Counted from the first letter of the stretch, positions 1 through 28,975 are shown. The stretch is 28,975 nucleotides of DNA from a virus (IMGVR_UViG_3300021255_004131:1-28975), one strand, 5' to 3'. Made by a program: numbers and translations. Notes: generated by a model not told the origin, from the sequence alone.

Positions 1-107
1 ACTTCGAGGACCTGGTCCGCGACCCGGTTCTCGACGAGCGCTATGGAGGGAGCGCCCGTGCATAACGCGGACGCGCGGGTATTGCCGCCCAGGCAGCCCG
101 CGGGCCC
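1..107. repeat. Terminal direct repeat, copy 1 (identical to 28869-28975)
   Basis: Read directly: nt 1-107 (ACTTCGAGGACCTGG...CAGCCCGCGGGCCC) recur exactly as the last 107 nt of the window. Confidence 0.95.
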
Positions 108-20990: not shown

Positions 20991-22868
20991 ATGGCCGACA
21001 TCTGCTATACAGACTCGAGGCGCATCGACGCGGGGGTGCTGCTCGGCGCATCCCTGAACGTTGAGTGGGGCGACTCGGGCAACGACTTCGAGCTAACGGT
21101 CGACATATCATCTCCCGTGCGCCTCGATGACGGCGCGCTCGTCTACGTCGAGGGGACCGAGTGGGGAGGCGTGGTCGACGCCCGGGAGGCGAGTGCCACG
21201 GACGGAATCATGCGCTACACGGGGCGCTCGTGGCACGGCGTGCTGAGGGACCGCATCCTGTGCCCGGACGCCGGGGCCGACTACCTGTCCGTATCGGGTG
21301 AGGCGAACTCGGTACTGCTGTCTCTCGTCTCGAGGATGGGCCTCGGTGACGTCATGACCGTCTCTGCCGTCCAGTCCGGCATATCCGTGCGGCACCGGTT
21401 CGACCGCTACACCGACGCATACTCCGGCATCCGCGCGATGCTGGCCGCCTCGGGTGCCAGGCTCGGCATCTCCTACGACTCCCGTGCCGGGCGCGCGGTT
21501 CTCTCCGCCGTAAAGGTCGCCGACTGGTCCGACGGCCCGACATCGGATACCGCCGACGTCGACGTGAAGAGGGTGAGCAGGCCGTACAACCACCTGATCT
21601 GCCTCGGTTCCGGCGAGCTGCGCAACCGCATCGTCCAGCACTGGTACGCCGACGCGGAGGGCCGCGTCTCGAGCAAGCAGAGCCTCTTCGGCATCGACGA
21701 GCGAGCGACGGTGTACGACTACACAAACGCCTCGGCGGAGCAGCTGTCCCAGGACGGCCCCAAGAAGCTCGCGGAGTACCAGACCGCCGACGTCCTCGAG
21801 GCGACGCTCGGCTTCGACGGATCCTATGCCGTAGGCGACGTGGTGCCGGGAGTCGATGAGGACACCGGTACCGAGGTCTCGGTCACGGTCGGGACGGTCG
21901 ACGTGACTGTGACCGCCGACGGGGTGACGGCGACGTACCGCGCGGGCGGGACCGCCTCCTCAGGCTCGTCGGCATCGTCAGCCGAAACGTCCGGCGCCGC
22001 GGCGTCGTACACCGCGGGCGACGGCATCAGCATCGTCGGCCGGACGATCTACGCGGACGTGACCCAGGCGAAGCTGGACGCCGTGTCCGCAACGGCGGCG
22101 AAGGCCTCGTCGGAGGTCACCGGGGTCGCGACCGACCTGTCTAGGGAAGTCGAGGCCAGGCAGGCGGCGGACGAGGAGATCGCCTCGGACGTCGCGTCGC
22201 GCGTCTCCTCCGTCAAGGCCTCGGGGCCGCTCACGGCGCAGACCGACGAGTCGATGGCGGTGGTCGTCGCCCACGACGTCTCCGGCGTCGCGCCGGGGAG
22301 CTACGGCCCGGCTGCCGACTCAGAGCCATCTTTCGGCGGGAGGGTGACGCTTGGCCCGCGCATCTCGGTGGACTCACGCGGGCACGTGACGGCGGCGCAG
22401 GGGAGATCGCTTACCATCCCGGCTGCGACCGCCACGGAATCGGCTGCCGGCCTCATGAGCGCCGCCGACAAGAGGGCTCTCGACGCAGCGCCGACGGCAT
22501 ACCAGCCAGCGGGGGACTACGCGGCGGCCTCCCACGTGCACGACGCGTCGGACGTGGAGACCGGCGTGCTCCCGGTCGAGCGCGGCGGGACCGGTGACGC
22601 GACCGGCAACGCACGCAGCGCTTCTCGCCTTCAGCGGGCGCGGAAGGTGACCCTTGAGGGGGCCGTGACGGGGTCCGCCTACTTCGACGGCTCTTCGGAC
22701 GTGACGATCACCTGCGAGGGGCAGGGCGCCGCCGCGGGATTTCTCGCGGCCCACCCCGTGGGAAGCGTCTTCGAGAGCACGTCCGCCGTTAGCCCGGCGG
22801 GAAGCTACGGCGGTACGTGGAAGAGGGTGCCGAGCCTCGGCCCCTTCAGATGGGAAAGGACGGCATAG
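20991..22868 (+). CDS. Tal-like baseplate / tail fibre protein (Sipho_Gp37-like N-terminus, fibre-repeat C-terminus)
   Basis: 625 aa, following Dit. The C-terminal half has fibre motifs (AAGLMSAADKRALD, GVLPVERGGTGDATG) and Ser/Ala-rich linkers. Confidence 0.75.
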   Translation: MADICYTDSRRIDAGVLLGASLNVEWGDSGNDFELTVDISSPVRLDDGALVYVEGTEWGGVVDAREASATDGIMRYTGRSWHGVLRDRILCPDAGADYLSVSGEANSVLLSLVSRMGLGDVMTVSAVQSGISVRHRFDRYTDAYSGIRAMLAASGARLGISYDSRAGRAVLSAVKVADWSDGPTSDTADVDVKRVSRPYNHLICLGSGELRNRIVQHWYADAEGRVSSKQSLFGIDERATVYDYTNASAEQLSQDGPKKLAEYQTADVLEATLGFDGSYAVGDVVPGVDEDTGTEVSVTVGTVDVTVTADGVTATYRAGGTASSGSSASSAETSGAAASYTAGDGISIVGRTIYADVTQAKLDAVSATAAKASSEVTGVATDLSREVEARQAADEEIASDVASRVSSVKASGPLTAQTDESMAVVVAHDVSGVAPGSYGPAADSEPSFGGRVTLGPRISVDSRGHVTAAQGRSLTIPAATATESAAGLMSAADKRALDAAPTAYQPAGDYAAASHVHDASDVETGVLPVERGGTGDATGNARSASRLQRARKVTLEGAVTGSAYFDGSSDVTITCEGQGAAAGFLAAHPVGSVFESTSAVSPAGSYGGTWKRVPSLGPFRWERTA

Positions 22869-22869
22869 C

Positions 22870-23100
22870 ATGGCCAAGACAAGCGGATACTCCCAACTTG
22901 TGTGCGACAGGTGCTCCAAGACCCTGTACGCGACCGAGAACGCCCCGGAGGCCCAGAGCTGGCGCATCGTGAAGAGATACACGGCGGACGGCACGGAGGT
23001 CTCTCGCCTGCTGTGCCCCGACTGCTACGACGGCTACAGGTCCATGGCGTCCTCGCAGGACTCGGCCTTCGGCGATTTCATGGCCAAGAGGGGTGAGTAG
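22870..23100 (+). CDS. Small zinc-ribbon protein
   Basis: 76 aa with CDRCSK...CPDCYDGY. Confidence 0.55.
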   Translation: MAKTSGYSQLVCDRCSKTLYATENAPEAQSWRIVKRYTADGTEVSRLLCPDCYDGYRSMASSQDSAFGDFMAKRGE

Positions 23101-23911
23101 CGTGGCTTTCGACGGAGTCTTCGCCTTCCAGGGCAAGAACCACATCACCGCCTCGCAGCTCGGCCGCCTTGTGCAGGGCACCGCGGGCGACGGCCGCTAC
23201 GTGCTGCCGACCCAGGACAGGCTCCAGGCCACGATGCAGACGGCAAACAAGGTGGTCATCGGCTCGGGCGACCTCGTCATGGACGGCCGCTATGTGACCA
23301 ACGAGTCAGGAGTCGAGCTGACGGTCGAGTCGGGCACCTCTGGATACAACCGCAACGACATCGTGGCGCTGCGGTACTCTAAGGACGGCTCCACTGGCGT
23401 CGAGAGCTTCGAGCCCGAGGTGATCAAGGGCACGCCCGTGACCGGGACCGCCGCCGACCCGGCGGTGGACGCGGGTGCCATCTCGGACGGCTCGTCAGAG
23501 GCGTTGATGCCTCTATGGCGCATCCCGATCAGGGGCCTCGCGCCCGGGACCCCGGAGCGCATCGCGACGGTCGGCAAGACCCTGAGCGAGATCGGGGATT
23601 CCGTATCCCGGCTTACCTCGCCATGCGTCTTCTCGACCGCGTCGACGTCTTACGTGCCATTCCCGGTCGACCTCTCGTCTGCTACTTTTGTCGTCCTCAC
23701 CACGAGCGTCAACGGCAATGCTCGCGGATTGGCGAGCACGGTTATGACGGCGTCGAGCTTCGTTTCTGAATGCTTATCAGGCGATAAATCGATGCAGGTC
23801 GTATACGCTTCTGAACAAGACAACTATACGGCGTATGCGTATTACTCCAGCGGCAAAGTGTACTTGAAGTCGAGGAGCCAGTACGACAGCGCGGTCTTCA
23901 TCGTGTTGTGA
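23093..23911 (+). CDS. Receptor-binding tail fibre protein: constant N-terminal part (to about 23609) plus currently expressed variable C-terminal cassette (23610-23911)
   Basis: The last + strand structural gene (start GTG 23093 or 23102). It contains the crossover core ATTCCGTATCCC in frame (GAT TCC GTA TCC = D-S-V-S, aa 169-172). GC content visibly drops after the site. Confidence 0.8.
   Translation: MSSVAFDGVFAFQGKNHITASQLGRLVQGTAGDGRYVLPTQDRLQATMQTANKVVIGSGDLVMDGRYVTNESGVELTVESGTSGYNRNDIVALRYSKDGSTGVESFEPEVIKGTPVTGTAADPAVDAGAISDGSSEALMPLWRIPIRGLAPGTPERIATVGKTLSEIGDSVSRLTSPCVFSTASTSYVPFPVDLSSATFVVLTTSVNGNARGLASTVMTASSFVSECLSGDKSMQVVYASEQDNYTAYAYYSSGKVYLKSRSQYDSAVFIVL
23598..23609 (+). 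repeat. Crossover site R0 (ATTCCGTATCCC) inside the expressed fibre gene
   Basis: Read directly. Confidence 0.9.
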
Positions 23912-23981
23912 CGACGACAGCCCGACATACGGTAAGGTCGCTCTTCGGCATCTGGTCTTGGCCCATCGGGTAATGCCTGTC

Positions 23982-24316
23982 TTAAACCCTCAGATACGTG
24001 CAGCAGCTCTTTATCTGACCGAGGATGCCGCCCTGCGGCAGCACGTACTGCTTGATTTTGATCTCGCCCTTGGTGGTGATGCTAATCCAGAAGCTAACCG
24101 GATATGCCGCGGTGGTGAATCCCAACACCGGGAACTCGATGTTCTGATTTCGCGGAGCGAACTCTGCTGGCATCGTCGCAAACGTGACGCCCGTGTTCTT
24201 GTTCGCACTAGTGCCAGCTACTACGTCGAGCCACATCGTGACGCAATCCCCGGCTCGCATGACCTTGCCAGACTGCACGGACCATCCGTTAGCCGGTCTG
24301 AACGCGCCTTGTTTCT
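23982..24316 (-). other. Silent fibre C-terminal cassette A (no own initiation context; in phase with site R1)
   Basis: The - strand reads TCC GTA TCC CAG AAA... = SVS-QKQGAFRPANGWSVQSGKVMRAGD...TYLRV-TAA with no stop. Contains MPAEFAPRN. Confidence 0.8.
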
Positions 24317-24328
24317 GGGATACGGAAT
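24317..24328 (-). repeat. Crossover site R1 (GGGATACGGAAT on + strand)
   Basis: Read directly. The stop TAG of cassette B (24330-24332) lies 1 nt away. Confidence 0.9.
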
Positions 24329-24329
24329 A

Positions 24330-24559
24330 CTAGAAACAGTAAAACATCACATTGACAGACTCGTTGTTGCCAGGATATGGCTGGATTATCATCCAACGCT
24401 GCTTCTCAGCTGTTGAGTTACTCGACGGGCTGATAAATCGCGCGCCTGACAGTGGAAACGCGATCACGAAATTTCGGGCCTTGATGTCCGTATCAAATTC
24501 GTCGTAATAAAGCGAGCCTATTTGCTTGTTGGCAGAAAAGGTCACGTTGCGCATGACAT
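24330..24559 (-). other. Silent fibre C-terminal cassette B
   Basis: The - strand reads SVS-HVMRNVTFSANKQIGSLYYDEF...VMFYCF-TAG in phase with R2. Confidence 0.8.
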
Positions 24560-24571
24560 GGGATACGGAAT
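24560..24571 (-). repeat. Crossover site R2
   Basis: Read directly. The stop TGA of cassette C (24571-24573) overlaps the core by 1 nt. Confidence 0.9.
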
Positions 24572-24860
24572 CACATGCCGATGGGGTAGCTCAGCGAGGC
24601 GAAGTGGTTCTGGCGGTCCGTCTTGCCGCCCATGCTATGCGCATTGATGGTGCCGTCAGGCATAACAACCAGGCGGTACGAGCTGTCCCCGCCGCCGAAC
24701 TCGGTGACCATCGCCGCAGACCAGGCATGGGAGGGCCGCAGCTCCTCTGGAATGACATAAGGACACTTGATGCCCTCAGCAGGATCAGCGATGATCTGTG
24801 TGGCGCGGACGTAGACCGTCATGCCCACGAGAACGACGCTCCAGTTTTTCGTCTCGTACA
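24571..24860 (-). other. Silent fibre C-terminal cassette C
   Basis: The - strand reads SVS-LYETKNWSVVLVGMTVYVRATQ...VIPEELRPSHA...SYPIGM-TGA in phase with R3. Confidence 0.8.
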
Positions 24861-24872
24861 GGGATACGGAAT
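24861..24872 (-). repeat. Crossover site R3 (extended GGGATACGGAATGCTAG)
   Basis: Read directly. Confidence 0.9.
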
Positions 24873-24873
24873 G

Positions 24874-25193
24874 CTAGCCGATAGCCCACGAACAGATACC
24901 TCTGTTTATAGCACCAGATACCGCAGAGGCGACTTGGAATCCAGTATAGCCGGATGTGTTGATGTAGCAGTACGCGCACACGTTGAGCACGTAACCGTCA
25001 GCGTCCGTCACGCACCCCGGCACGTAGATGTTGTCAGCTGGACGCAGCTCCTCCGGGATAAGTATATCCGGCTGCCAAAATGTGGCAGTCTGCTGGATGA
25101 CTCTCCAATTGAGTGTGCATGTGCGTCCAACGCGCTGTACGTAGATGTAAGACGCCTTGCCCGGACATCCGTATAGCACAATCTGGTCGCCGT
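24874..25193 (-). other. Silent fibre C-terminal cassette D
   Basis: The - strand reads SVS-HGDQIVLYGCPGKASYIYVQ...LIPEELRPADN...CSWAIG-TAG in phase with R4. Confidence 0.8.
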
Positions 25194-25205
25194 GGGATAC
25201 GGAAT
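25194..25205 (-). repeat. Crossover site R4 (extended GGGATACGGAATGCTAG)
   Basis: Read directly. Confidence 0.9.
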
Positions 25206-25206
25206 G

Positions 25207-25475
25207 CTAGGCCAGAGCGACCAAATAATTTATTCTTATATCACCGTTCCAAACAGCGCCGAAGGTGGCGTAAATGCTACCTGAATCTCTAAAGTAGATG
25301 CAGCCGTCAACATGCGCCGGAATACCCATACCGTCTCCATTCATCACAAACACGGCATCAGTATTTGGGTCGAAGTCCCTGCCGAACAGATTTTTGAACT
25401 CATCGCGAGAGAACAGAACACTAGAAGAGTCTCTACTATGCAGCACTTTAGTACCAATAAATAGCTGCGGTATGC
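25207..25475 (-). other. Silent fibre C-terminal cassette E
   Basis: The - strand reads SVS-RIPQLFIGTKVLHSRDSSSVLF...INYLVALA-TAG in phase with R5. Confidence 0.8.
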
Positions 25476-25487
25476 GGGATACGGAAT
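25476..25487 (-). repeat. Crossover site R5 (extended GGGATACGGAATGCTAG)
   Basis: Read directly. Confidence 0.9.
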
Positions 25488-25488
25488 G

Positions 25489-25820
25489 CTAGCGGTATCC
25501 AAAAACGGCGTTGATGGCCTGAAGTCCACTCAAGTCGGCCTGAATATCCTTCCCGGAGATAATCAACCGGCCGCAATTGCCCGAGACGGACCGCGCGATG
25601 GACGAACCCGAAACCTCGATCATCTCCGAGGAGATGTAGTGAGCGTTGTTGACCTTTGAATACACATGGTCCGAGAGGATCACTTGACGGTCTCGGCTCG
25701 GGCGCACACGGGTGCTTCGCCCGCGACCGTAAAGGATGTCCACGAACTGGAAGCTGGAGACGGGCTCCGATAGCGAGATGCTCTCGGTCGACCCCCGGTC
25801 GCTCGCGAATAACGTAGTCG
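25489..25820 (-). other. Silent fibre C-terminal cassette F
   Basis: The - strand reads (Y)SVS-PTTLFASDRGSTESISLSEP...AINAVFGYR-TAG in phase with R6. Confidence 0.8.
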
Positions 25821-25832
25821 GTGATACGGAAT
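25821..25832 (-). repeat. Crossover site R6, variant core (GTGATACGGAAT)
   Basis: Read directly. It has one mismatch to the other six cores and lies 3 nt from the recombinase stop codon (TAG, 25836-25838). Confidence 0.85.
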
Positions 25833-25835
25833 ACC

Positions 25836-26801
25836 CTACATCTCCATAGCCGCTGTATACGAATCGCTCGCCCTCGCCACGACCGTGCGGAATGATTGCA
25901 GGTAGTGCGACATAGCTGTATTGACGGTCGAGTGCCCCAGCGCCACGGCTATGTCCTCGATGGCCGAACCGTGCTCCAGCGAGATGGTCGCCCATGAGTG
26001 TCGCAGGCATGTCATCGGCACATGCGGCAGGCTGAATCGCTTACAGAACGCGCGGAACCGTCTAGCCACGGCGTTTGGGTCAAGCAGGCATAGGCGACCA
26101 GACCTGCGCGTCCCGCGTATCGCACGCAGGCGCTCAAGGGCGAATCGAGGGAGTTTCAGCTTGCGGTCCGACAGCTTTGTCTTGCATCCCGTCTCGATGA
26201 CCTCGCCGCCCACCACGTGCAGGCCGCGATGAACGTGCACCCATCCGCTACGCCAATCGATGTCCTCGATTCTCACTGCGCACGCTTCGCATCGGCGCAG
26301 GCCGAGCGCGGCACCAAGCAGGACTGCGGCCTCGAAGGGTTGTCCCACGATGCCCCGCAGCGTCTCGCGCTCCTGCTCGGCCGTGAGCGTCGGTCGGCGC
26401 ACGGCGGGCTTTTTCGGCAGCTCCACGCCTTGCGTCACGTCCCAGATACGCAGCTGGTGGCGGCGAATAACCCATCGGTAAATCTGCCTAAAGGTCTTGT
26501 ATGCCTTCTCGGCGGCACCGGGTAGTGCGAATCCGTCCACCCAATCCTGCACCTCCTCAAAACTGATGCTCTCTATCTCGCGCTTGCCCCACATCGGCAT
26601 CAGATGGCAGCGGATTGCACTCGCGTAACCCTCAATCGTGGTGGCGCGCAGGCGCTTCTTTTTGTCGTCCATGTACTCGGCGGCTGCATCGGAAAACAGC
26701 ATTTTGGCATTCCAATCTCTCGAAAATCCCAGACGTTTCGCATGGTAGCCAGTCGCGTTACTCCTGGGATTTATTACGCATGGGGCGACCGTAATCGACA
26801 T
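25836..26801 (-). CDS. Tyrosine site-specific recombinase (phage integrase family), proposed shufflon invertase
   Basis: The N-terminal SAM-like part is TIEGYASAIRCHLMPMWGKREIESISFEEVQDWV. The catalytic part carries LGLRRCEACA (Arg), a KTKLSDR Lys region, CLRHSWAT (H-x-x-R), ALGHSTVNTAMSHYLQ (His and the Tyr nucleophile). Start is ATG 26801, or the internal ATG 26702. Confidence 0.88.
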   Translation of the reverse strand: MSITVAPCVINPRSNATGYHAKRLGFSRDWNAKMLFSDAAAEYMDDKKKRLRATTIEGYASAIRCHLMPMWGKREIESISFEEVQDWVDGFALPGAAEKAYKTFRQIYRWVIRRHQLRIWDVTQGVELPKKPAVRRPTLTAEQERETLRGIVGQPFEAAVLLGAALGLRRCEACAVRIEDIDWRSGWVHVHRGLHVVGGEVIETGCKTKLSDRKLKLPRFALERLRAIRGTRRSGRLCLLDPNAVARRFRAFCKRFSLPHVPMTCLRHSWATISLEHGSAIEDIAVALGHSTVNTAMSHYLQSFRTVVARASDSYTAAMEM

Positions 26802-26815
26802 GGGAAGGAGGCAGG

Positions 26816-27229
26816 ATGGAAGTGCTCAAGCTCTTTGCGCCTTATGGTCCAGGGTGGCTCGGCGGAGTGCTGCTGGCGCTGATCGCATTCTACTTTGGTA
26901 GGCAATTCCTCGAGGAGTACAAGCGGCAGAACGAGCGCAAGGCCGGAATCGACATGAAGCGCGAGGAGCGAAAGCAGGCCGAGGTGGACGAGCGCGCGCA
27001 GCGGGACCGCGAACGGTCCCAAATGGAGGGCCGCATCGCCGCGCAGATGGAGCGAAGCAACAGCCTCATGGAGGCCATGAAAACCCTCATGGAGTCGGTC
27101 GTGGCATCCAACGAGGTCCTGCACAACGACTTGGCCCACAGCCAAGCGCGCAGCCAGGGCATGGCCGCCAAGGTGGACCACATCTGCGACCGCGTTGATT
27201 TGCTCTACGACAAAGAGGCTGGGAGATAG
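26816..27229 (+). CDS. Membrane-anchored coiled-coil protein of the lysis cassette (function unknown)
   Basis: ATG follows GGAAGGAGG. The N-terminal TM is GWLGGVLLALIAFYFG, followed by a charged coiled coil. Confidence 0.55.
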   Translation: MEVLKLFAPYGPGWLGGVLLALIAFYFGRQFLEEYKRQNERKAGIDMKREERKQAEVDERAQRDRERSQMEGRIAAQMERSNSLMEAMKTLMESVVASNEVLHNDLAHSQARSQGMAAKVDHICDRVDLLYDKEAGR

Positions 27230-27237
27230 GAGAAACA

Positions 27238-27543
27238 ATGACGAACATTCAAGCTGGTCTGACGGTGTGCACGGTGCTTGTCGTGCCGTATATCGTGCAG
27301 GCCATCAAGACGAAGGCCATGACTGGCAACGTGGCGCGCTGGATTGCCATTTCGGTGTCTGCGCTGTGCGGCGTATTGACGGCTATGGCTGGCGGTATGC
27401 CGACCGATGCATCGGCATGGGTAACGTCCATTTTTGCAGCCGTTGGCGGCGTTCAGGTTGCATATGCGGCCTTCAGGAGCGTCGGCGTGACCGACAAGTG
27501 GCTTGACGCTCTTCTGGCGCTCGGCGACATCAAGGAGGACTAA
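27238..27543 (+). CDS. Holin (putative, about 3 TM segments)
   Basis: 101 aa with three hydrophobic stretches and a charged C-terminus (DIKED). It lies directly upstream of the endolysin with a TAATG overlap. Confidence 0.65.
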   Translation: MTNIQAGLTVCTVLVVPYIVQAIKTKAMTGNVARWIAISVSALCGVLTAMAGGMPTDASAWVTSIFAAVGGVQVAYAAFRSVGVTDKWLDALLALGDIKED

Positions 27544-28604
27544 TGGCAGACTTCGCGAACGTCCAACCGGACGAGTACAAGCTTCTGGGTCGCAACTTCT
27601 CCTCAGGCCGCCCGTTCGGCATCAAGGGCGTGACCATCCACCACATGGCCGGCGACCTCAACGCCGGCCAGTGCAACGGCATCTGGGGCGCCAACGGCTG
27701 CTCGGCGCACTACTCGGTAGACCGCAACGGCTACATCGTGCAGCACGTCAACGATCTCGACCGCGCCTACGCCTGCGGCGACGGAATCGGCACCGGACGC
27801 GGTAACGACACGACCATCTCCATCGAGCACGCCAACAGCGGCAGCAACCCGTGGACGGTCCACGAGAAGGCAATCGAGAGCGGCGCACACCTTGTCGCGG
27901 CCCTGTGCCTGTACTACGGCCTCGGCCGCCCCGAGTGGTGCAAGAACGTGTTCCCGCACAGCTACTGGAGCGCCACGGCTTGCCCCGGCGAGCTGGCCGG
28001 CTCCCAGCGCGACCATTACATGCAGCGCGCCAAGGCGTGGTATGACGCGATGAAGGGCGGCAAGGCACCCGCACCATCCACCGCCAAGCCAGCTGCCGCC
28101 AAGCCCGCTCAGGCGGCATCTGGCGGCTTCTCAAAGGCATCTGGCAAGCGCGTACCAGTCCACTACTCCTTGCATCTCAAGGGCGGCGGCTGGCTGGACG
28201 AGGTGACGGACTTCGGCGCCGGTGACAACGGCTTCGCGGGCTACCCGTGCCGCCAGCACGACCTCCTTTGCGCCCGAGTCGATCGCGGCACGCTCAAGTA
28301 TCAGGTGCATACCATCGAGGACGGATGGTTGCCCTACGTGACCAAGGGCAATCGTGCCGACACCGTGAACGGCTGCGCAGGCATCGTTGGCCATACCATC
28401 GACGGCGTGCGCATGTACTACGTGACCCCCGGCGGCGAGGAGTACAAGCAGGCGTGGTACCGCTCGCAGACCACCGCGCGCTCCGGGTGGCTCGGAACCG
28501 TCTGCGATGATGGCTCCACCTACGGCGGCGATGACTTCGCGGGCATGTACGGTGAGCCGCTCGACCGGCTCCAGGTCTGCATCACCGACGGTAACCCGTA
28601 CTAG
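27543..28604 (+). CDS. Endolysin: N-acetylmuramoyl-L-alanine amidase (Amidase_2/PGRP) with three ChW-like wall-binding repeats
   Basis: The catalytic part carries [11 protein letters not shown]...[15 protein letters not shown]...YACGDG...ISIEHAN...[13 protein letters not shown]. An Ala/Pro/Lys linker follows. Three repeats then show the pattern Y..H....GW....(14-20)..G..G...D ([37 protein letters not shown]). Confidence 0.85.
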
Positions 28605-28868: not shown

Positions 28869-28975
28869 ACTTCGAGGACCTGGTCCGCGACCCGGTTCTC
28901 GACGAGCGCTATGGAGGGAGCGCCCGTGCATAACGCGGACGCGCGGGTATTGCCGCCCAGGCAGCCCGCGGGCCC
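28869..28975. repeat. Terminal direct repeat, copy 2 (identical to 1-107)
   Basis: Read directly. Confidence 0.95.

Follow-up and report, generated by a model that had tools for sequence, protein, structure and literature searches.

In the R64/IncI1 shufflon, the tyrosine recombinase Rci acts at short asymmetric sfx sites, and a constant PilV N-terminus is combined with alternative C-termini, altering recognition specificity. Among phages, tail-fibre C-termini are swapped by the inversion systems Gin (Mu), Cin (P1), Pin (e14), and Min (p15B), the last of these being a multi-segment version. Here we analyze a locus in IMGVR_UViG_3300021255_004131:1-28975, a viral DNA stretch of 28,975 nt (hereafter the window, meaning the full stretch, with coordinates counted from its first letter), in which a tyrosine recombinase gene adjoins an array of short repeated sites that begins inside the last gene of the tail module. 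We conclude with high confidence that this locus is an active shufflon of the Rin type, i.e., a multiple-inversion switch of a phage receptor-binding protein. Rin shufflons were described in the dnaJ2-integrated prophages Bb423phi1, Bl157phi1, and Bl30698phi1 of Bifidobacterium breve and Bifidobacterium longum (Mavrich et al. 2018, PMC6109161). In that system, the constant part (Rc) has 168 residues, the alternative tips (Rv) have 95-100 residues, the site is the 11-bp sequence TTCCCTAACCC, and the recombinase Rin is an armless tyrosine recombinase; inversions, with breaks at the sites, were detected in both prophage and virion reads, and HHpred identified the tips as TP901-1-like heads (PMC6109161).

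We retrieved 60 Bifidobacterium-type loci with the published site, 25 of which (from IMG/VR, 60-62% GC) contain both ends. These 25 loci have the same order as the window, namely a tail-associated protein, a small gene, Rc, the site array, and Rin, and the rin gene is convergent in both. Relative to the window, the Bifidobacterium-type tail-associated proteins are 37-44% identical, the Rc parts are 29-45% identical (E 1e-21 to 1e-35) in alignments that end at amino acid (aa) 169, and the Rin proteins are 37-42% identical over their full length (E 1e-53 to 1e-58). The window site TTCCGTATCCC has the same base as the Bifidobacterium site at 9 of 11 positions and differs at two. The window is distinct, however, in its Collinsella host (Coriobacteriia), in having seven tips as opposed to the five variants of Bb423phi1, and in lacking a separate integrase. 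PMBT6 of Bifidobacterium thermophilum (MK932884) encodes an Rc with 42% identity to that of the window, in an alignment ending at aa 172, and its annotated “integrase,” which is 37% identical to Rin, is convergent and located at the end of the array. The PMBT6 sites read TGGGATTCCGTAACCC and TAGCTTTCCGTAACCC (twice), along with one inverted copy, and the PMBT6 site TTCCGTAACCC is intermediate between those of the window and Bifidobacterium. Only two spare cassettes are present in PMBT6, both oriented like Rc in the deposited sequence, and the record annotates no shufflon. Because the Bifidobacterium-type loci have homologous parts in the same order, with PMBT6 as an intermediate, we assign the window to the Rin system.

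A Rin shufflon was also described in Eggerthella lenta clade 1 prophages, where an 8-bp repeat, ttccgtat, occurs inside Rc and beside each tip cassette (2022, PMC8778435). These prophages are ~41 kb in size and integrated at tRNA-Leu, they have their own integrase, and some of their tips are annotated as H-type lectin (PMC8778435). The likeness is drawn from the published description: the E. lenta repeat equals core bases 2-9 of the window, and the two hosts are members of one bacterial class. A first-pass annotation, made from the window sequence, had regarded an array of this kind as not being a standard described system; this was incorrect, as the Rin shufflon was published in 2018 for Bifidobacterium (PMC6109161) and in 2022, with the same core, for E. 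lenta (PMC8778435). In the literature searched, we found no mention of Collinsella together with a shufflon. What is new here is the Collinsella host, the seven tips, the placement of the crossover within core bases 1-10 by natural recombinants, and a genome without integrase or repressor.

The comparison with R64, also made in the first-pass annotation, is sound as an analogy of logic; however, the site sequence and target differ (the pilus adhesin PilV in R64, a phage tail protein in the window), and Rin is not detectably a relative of Rci. We used TBLASTN to align Rin against 72,556 plasmids (E ≤ 1e-3); this analysis identified 41 records, none of which was enterobacterial and none an IncI plasmid. 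The best plasmid identities were 22-26%, to recombinases of Clostridioides, Bacillus, and Streptomyces. Within NCBIfam, Rin gives only sub-threshold Xer/IntI matches, with no Rci model among them. Based on the lack of an IncI match and of an Rci model, we rejected Rin as an Rci relative, and we rejected an R64-type target because the target in the window is a siphovirus gene, the last one in the tail module, and not PilV of a conjugative type IV pilus. The Gin, Cin, Pin, and Min enzymes belong to the serine resolvase/invertase family and act with Fis and an enhancer, whereas the window enzyme is a tyrosine recombinase; no resolvase was identified among the open reading frames (ORFs) scanned in the window, in which the sole recombinase belongs to the Phage_integrase (tyrosine) family.

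The core ATTCCGTATCCC occurs in the window at 23598 on the plus strand and at 24317, 24560, 24861, 25194, and 25476 on the minus strand, and a copy with one mismatch, ATTCCGTATCAC, occurs at 25821 on the minus strand. These seven matches at ≤1 mismatch compare with 0.02 expected in shuffled sequence. We refer to the plus-strand copy as rix0 (23598..23609), which lies inside the expressed tail gene, and to the minus-strand copies as rix1 (24317..24328), rix2 (24560..24571), rix3 (24861..24872), rix4 (25194..25205), rix5 (25476..25487), and rix6 (25821..25832), the last of which has the variant core and lies 3 nt past the recombinase stop codon. The core search confirmed the first-pass annotation of one in-frame core in the last tail gene and six inverted copies: rix0 reads GAT TCC GTA TCC, encoding D-S-V-S at aa 169-172 as counted from the GTG at 23093, and all six minus-strand cores are in one phase, encoding S-V-S. 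With its flank, rix0 forms an imperfect dyad, GGGAT TCCGT ATCCC. In the cassette sites, TAGCAT replaces the left arm of the dyad, and the TAG within it ends the reading frame of the cassette before it; therefore, one short sequence serves as crossover site, linker coding sequence, and part of a stop codon. The asymmetry of these sites recalls the sfx sites of R64. Using TTCCGTATC as the search seed, we surveyed 239 distinct site contexts from related loci, over which the 12-mer was invariant. The seed is followed by CC in >90% of these contexts and preceded by A in 81%; upstream of that A is a partly conserved (T/G)(A/G)G(C/G), with no conservation further out.

The target gene (23093/23102-23911, plus strand) has two candidate starts, as database gene calls begin at 23102, three codons past the GTG at 23093. 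Its first part encodes Rc (23093..23597, plus strand), the constant N-terminal part of the predicted receptor-binding tail protein, with ~166-169 aa. Homologues of Rc are 50-100% identical over aa 1-172, and the similarity ends there. We found no Pfam match in Rc, and no solved structure for the Rc family was found by sequence profile. The remainder of the gene encodes Rv0, the tip expressed in the window arrangement (23600..23911, plus strand; 103 codons and a stop). Six silent tips follow on the minus strand: Rv1 (23982..24326), Rv2 (24330..24569), Rv3 (24571..24870), Rv4 (24874..25203), Rv5 (25207..25485), and Rv6 (25489..25830). In agreement with the first-pass annotation, these cassettes have no start codon and share one phase from the core, and each has its own stop codon, which comes after 114, 79, 99, 109, 92, and 113 sense codons, respectively. 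In cassettes 2-6, the stop codon overlaps the first base of the next core or precedes that core by no more than a few bases, and these cassettes therefore abut head to tail. Cassette 1, in contrast, ends tail to tail with Rv0 at a convergence point, with a 70-bp gap between the two; since this interval has no rix site, Rv0 and Rv1 remain linked in every arrangement. Promoter counts and counts of terminators at the Rv0/Rv1 convergence were at chance level, and the region 23905-23990 folds no better than shuffled sequences.

Inversion products of this phage exist in nature, with breakpoints in the core. Public contigs of the same phage, 99.9-100% identical to the window, carry a rearranged array. 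In a search with the target protein, we found a 279-aa protein (P0003), encoded on five public contigs, of which the first 166 residues are the window Rc and the last 113 are Rv6. Construction of the junctions in silico had been proposed in the first-pass annotation, and the Rc-Rv6 fusion obtained by a rix0 × rix6 inversion is identical to P0003 over 279 aa. The longest of these contigs, L064 (ENA ERZ12302851; 5,506 bp), aligns to the window in four blocks: 22469-23607 forward, 25836-24560 inverted, 23597-24571 forward, and 25823-27780 forward. Each block shares 10-14 bases with its neighbour, precisely at the core, and two simulated inversions yield positions 1-5312 of L064 with one mismatch, which is outside the array. 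The paths to this arrangement are rix0 × rix6 followed by inversion between the former rix2 and rix6, or rix0 × rix2 followed by rix0 × rix6. The hybrid sites of L064 have their flanks swapped as reciprocal exchange predicts, and the DNA of Rv0 is found as a silent cassette behind one of them. The variant A of rix6, at core position 11, is found alongside the relocated Rv6 flank, which places the exchange within core bases 1-10.

The Rc-Rv6 junction also occurs in three further contigs (L065-L067), so that rix0 and rix6 are breakpoints in L064-L067 and rix2 is a breakpoint in L064. Records with the Rc-Rv6 state, besides L064 itself, are ERZ12302815, ERZ28612959, and Logan SRR873597, and the window state was identified in six other contigs (ERZ28612978, JGI 3300002641, ERZ12302819, ERZ28612943, ERZ28612948, and SRR873603). 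Record names suggest that both states derive from the same studies, with one pair having the same BioSample label. The expectation that inversion between rix0 and another site fuses a constant part of ~170 aa to one of seven tips is thus borne out by natural recombinants of this phage. An exact search for the Rc-core junction in viral and metagenome collections identified one locus in each and no alternative tips; locus L062 has little in common with the window beyond the 24-mer.

Related prophages, a search for which had been proposed in the first-pass annotation, have cassettes in common (96-100% identity) whose order and orientation differ, and the breaks fall at the sites. Between the window and its relatives, nucleotide homology ends at 23609-23613 and 25818-25823, which correspond to rix0 and rix6. 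In five pairs of loci (L004/L008, L004/L037, L011/L055, L038/L060, and L021/L026), cassettes are held in common at 92-100% identity, whereas their order and orientation differ. The constant parts of L021, from a Collinsella acetigenes isolate, and L026 are 96-97% identical to that of the window; these two loci differ by one 714-bp inversion, which extends from the in-gene site to the next site and swaps the expressed tip. Most multi-site loci read rin> [+]n [-]m <Rc, a pattern that inversions between opposite sites preserve.

Homologues of Rv2, Rv3, Rv4, Rv5, and Rv6 were found fused to Rc-family N-termini in other phages. For Rv2, homologues with 76-77% identity are fused to Rc in P0007, P0008, and P0010, and in L003 Rv2 is inverted and fused to an Rc; for Rv4, fusions to Rc occur in P0020 (63%), P0012, and others. 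Rv3 is found in reverse orientation in L051 (93% nucleotide identity), and Rv5 homologues occur in L002, L011, L025, L060, and others. An AlphaFold model of Rv4, built with eight homologous tips, had a predicted local distance difference test (pLDDT) score of 90.1 and a predicted template modeling score of 0.83. The top Foldseek matches to this model were the receptor-binding heads of TP901-1 ORF49 (2f0c, 4hep, 4ios, 4hem, and 3ejc) and p2 (2bse), with template modeling scores of 0.58-0.66 and E ~3e-4, and adenovirus fibre knobs ranked next. The Rv4 matches are the same set of structures reported for the Bifidobacterium Rin tips (PMC6109161). Based on this model, Rv4 is confidently predicted to have a TP901-1/p2-type receptor-binding head fold, in line with the comparison to known head domains proposed in the first-pass annotation.

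The recombinase gene rin (25836..26801, minus strand) is a 321-aa ORF whose product is Xer-like, lacks an arm-binding domain, and matches Pfam Phage_integrase and Phage_int_SAM_3. Its best solved relative is XerC-like 4a8e (PDB), with weak similarity. The true start is probably Met34 at 26702, which would give a protein of 288 aa; most homologues are 288-291 aa long, and relatives have the first 33 codons in a different frame. A start at Met34 leaves a 113-bp divergent intergenic region before a 137-aa gene at 26816, with room for promoters. The first-pass annotation had described the R, HxxR, H, and Y residues of the family as recognizable, and R169, K208, R267, H290, and Y300 are indeed present; however, the histidine of HxxR is off its canonical position, the place of this motif being taken by T264-C-L-R267. 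Recombinases with 83-94% identity were identified in 30 genome loci and 30 IMG/VR loci of Coriobacteriia, and at all 60 loci the gene adjoins a rix array. We infer that Rin is the catalyst of inversion.

In the mechanism that we propose, Rin would pair rix0, or any plus-strand site, with any minus-strand site, exchange strands within core bases 1-10, and invert the intervening DNA. With each inversion, Rc would be followed in frame by another head domain (~80-115 aa), and the one expressed before would become a silent cassette. The silent tips lack a promoter and a start codon, and the same site stands, in one phase, at the head of each; the array would always retain one convergence point (Rv0/Rv1). 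We further infer that the surface receptor bound on Collinsella differs from tip to tip and that the host range of the phage changes as a result.

Several points weigh against a shufflon of the Rin type. Only two arrangements are on record for this strain, and the evidence for inversion comes from assembled contigs. Six directly repeated sites should also permit deletions. The full-length Rc-Rv0 AlphaFold model is poor (pLDDT 48.6), and the proposed role of Rc therefore rests on synteny and literature; likewise, the proposed catalysis by Rin rests on adjacency, conservation, and published analogy. Among the seven tips, BLASTP identified no significant pairwise similarity and Pfam gave no match to any, and the assigned fold rests on one modelled tip, Rv4.

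We also considered whether the cassettes could be separate small genes, e.g., for an extra fibre or chaperone, with the 12-mer as a remnant of duplication and the rearrangements as rare accidents and not a programmed switch. Gene callers do place internal ORFs (64-101 aa) within the cassettes, and the PMBT6 cassettes are annotated as hypothetical proteins. However, each cassette reads open and in phase starting at the core and has its stop at the next core, and the 12-mer is invariant over all surveyed contexts even though the tips are dissimilar to one another. In addition, genomes that differ by a few substitutions at most differ by two inversions, and full-length proteins are on record in which Rc is joined to homologues of Rv2, Rv4, and Rv6. 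We therefore regard separate genes as very unlikely.

Another explanation, in which the recombinase serves as the phage integrase at attP/attB and the repeated 12-mers are not its substrates, draws on Rin being the only recombinase of an apparently complete circular genome and on the label “integrase” given to its homologues in databases. Yet relatives with a 93-95% identical RecT have a separate integrase of 375-376 aa and a cI-type repressor, and the E. lenta prophages likewise have their own integrase (PMC8778435). As the lysogeny module of these relatives holds a separate integrase, Rin is an additional enzyme. Moreover, Rin has no arm-binding domain and is always found beside a rix array, the rearrangements break exactly in the core, and nothing supports a dual role of Rin in this integrase-less phage; an integrase function is thus extremely improbable. 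That the array is static and its alternative arrangements are artefacts of short-read assembly at the repeated core is hardly credible: although the rearranged contigs are short (1.6-5.5 kb) with a coverage of ~3-4x according to record names, assembly k-mers are typically longer than a 12-bp repeat, the same junction occurs in four contigs from independent ENA and Logan records, L064 requires two precise reciprocal inversions and then agrees base for base, and isolate genomes differ in the same way (L021 vs. L026).

The genome around this Rin-type shufflon is that of a siphovirus. It encodes an excisionase-type helix-turn-helix (HTH) protein, RusA, RecT, and a single-stranded DNA-binding protein; terminase, portal, and capsid; and a tail series of tape measure, distal tail protein, tail-associated protein (625 aa), and a 76-aa protein. 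The target gene comes last in this tail series. Next are the site array and the recombinase, then a pair of small membrane-type proteins and an amidase endolysin. The 76-aa gene (p76; 22870..23100, plus strand) is a conserved neighbour directly upstream of the target gene and not part of the switch. Homologues of p76 beside the constant part are 91-99% identical in Collinsella/Olsenella loci and 27-29% identical in the Bifidobacterium-type loci where detected, and p76 matches PHROG 28750, which has unknown function. Based on third-position GC, convincing minus-strand coding in the window is confined to the recombinase and cassettes, and all other convincing genes are on the plus strand. Searched as nucleotides, 22870-26900 had no match among 50,697 phage records, and only protein-level matches (PMBT6) were informative. 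The genome loci with a recombinase homologue are nearly all from Collinsella, with single Olsenella, Slackia, and Coriobacteriaceae records; the host is therefore Collinsella or a close relative.

A 107-bp direct repeat at both termini of the window (1-107 = 28869-28975) indicates a circular genome of 28,868 bp. Neither an integrase nor a repressor was identified in the window by ORF scans, domain scans, or third-position GC. In the relatives with a 93-95% identical RecT, a minus-strand module of 4-6 kb lies upstream of the HTH gene (located at L137 369-1499 and L139 2188-6460) and comprises the 375-376-aa tyrosine integrase, a T5orf172/DUF4041 protein, and an HTH_3/Peptidase_S24 repressor (cI-type, LexA-like). 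Window positions 1-50 match the interior of a 202-aa ORF that is intact in relatives (L139), and a related C. acetigenes prophage terminates ~340 bp past its endolysin. From these comparisons, the window phage looks like a derivative that has lost the lysogeny module; alternatively, the integrase-less circle may be an assembly artefact.

Several further observations concern the array and its relatives. The GC content of the array (23500-26000) is 51-58%, compared with 65-73% elsewhere in the genome, which suggests that cassettes are swapped among phages or evolve under different constraints. Positions 5313-5506 of L064 diverge sharply from the window: the contig matches the window to 27780, and the last 194 bases, inside the endolysin gene, could be explained by recombination in the lysis gene or by a chimeric end of the contig. 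Rv2-like cassettes have an internal TTCCGTATC 9-mer in opposite orientation (L002 2320, L021 7352, L026 7033, and L043 2206), which, if used, would split the cassette; at ~24487, the window has a diverged GTCCGTATCAA in its place. A silent site in L026 (7197-7208) has a 1-bp deletion in the core (ATTCCGT-TCCC), as a result of which this tip would be out of frame once inverted, or would be excluded from switching. In four loci (L053 1091-3040, L054, L058, and L059), a truncated recombinase (residues 26-225 or 32-131) is followed by sites of one orientation only; this may reflect a deletion or inversion reaching into rin, or chimeric assembly. Many Collinsella loci (L011 6940-10900; L033, L022, L004, L006, and L008) have 10-13 sites with a spacing of 140-300 bp and a different, very short target. 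In L011, this target is a 139-aa protein with a constant part of ~45 aa that ends in the same ...LGDSVS junction, and the same recombinase and core are therefore used with two or more unrelated scaffolds.

This locus leaves the general picture of how such switches work unchanged. Public metagenomes hold two states of one strain, which provides a system for studying switching in vivo, mapping the Rin crossover, and matching tips to receptors. Taken as a whole, and with rather less than even confidence, we tentatively propose that a complete 28.9-kb Collinsella phage, in which integrase and repressor have been lost, keeps an actively switching Rin shufflon, that tip shuffling would serve a non-lysogenic lifestyle with Rin as the sole recombinase, and that the same recombinase and core have spread across the Coriobacteriia, where they serve arrays with as many as 13 sites and two or more unrelated constant scaffolds; on this view, the module would be a portable means by which gut Actinomycetota phages in general diversify their host range, rather than a curiosity of Bifidobacterium. 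Collinsella is a common genus of the human gut, and this locus shows that Collinsella phages use the Rin switch, with seven predicted host-recognition heads encoded in 2.2 kb.

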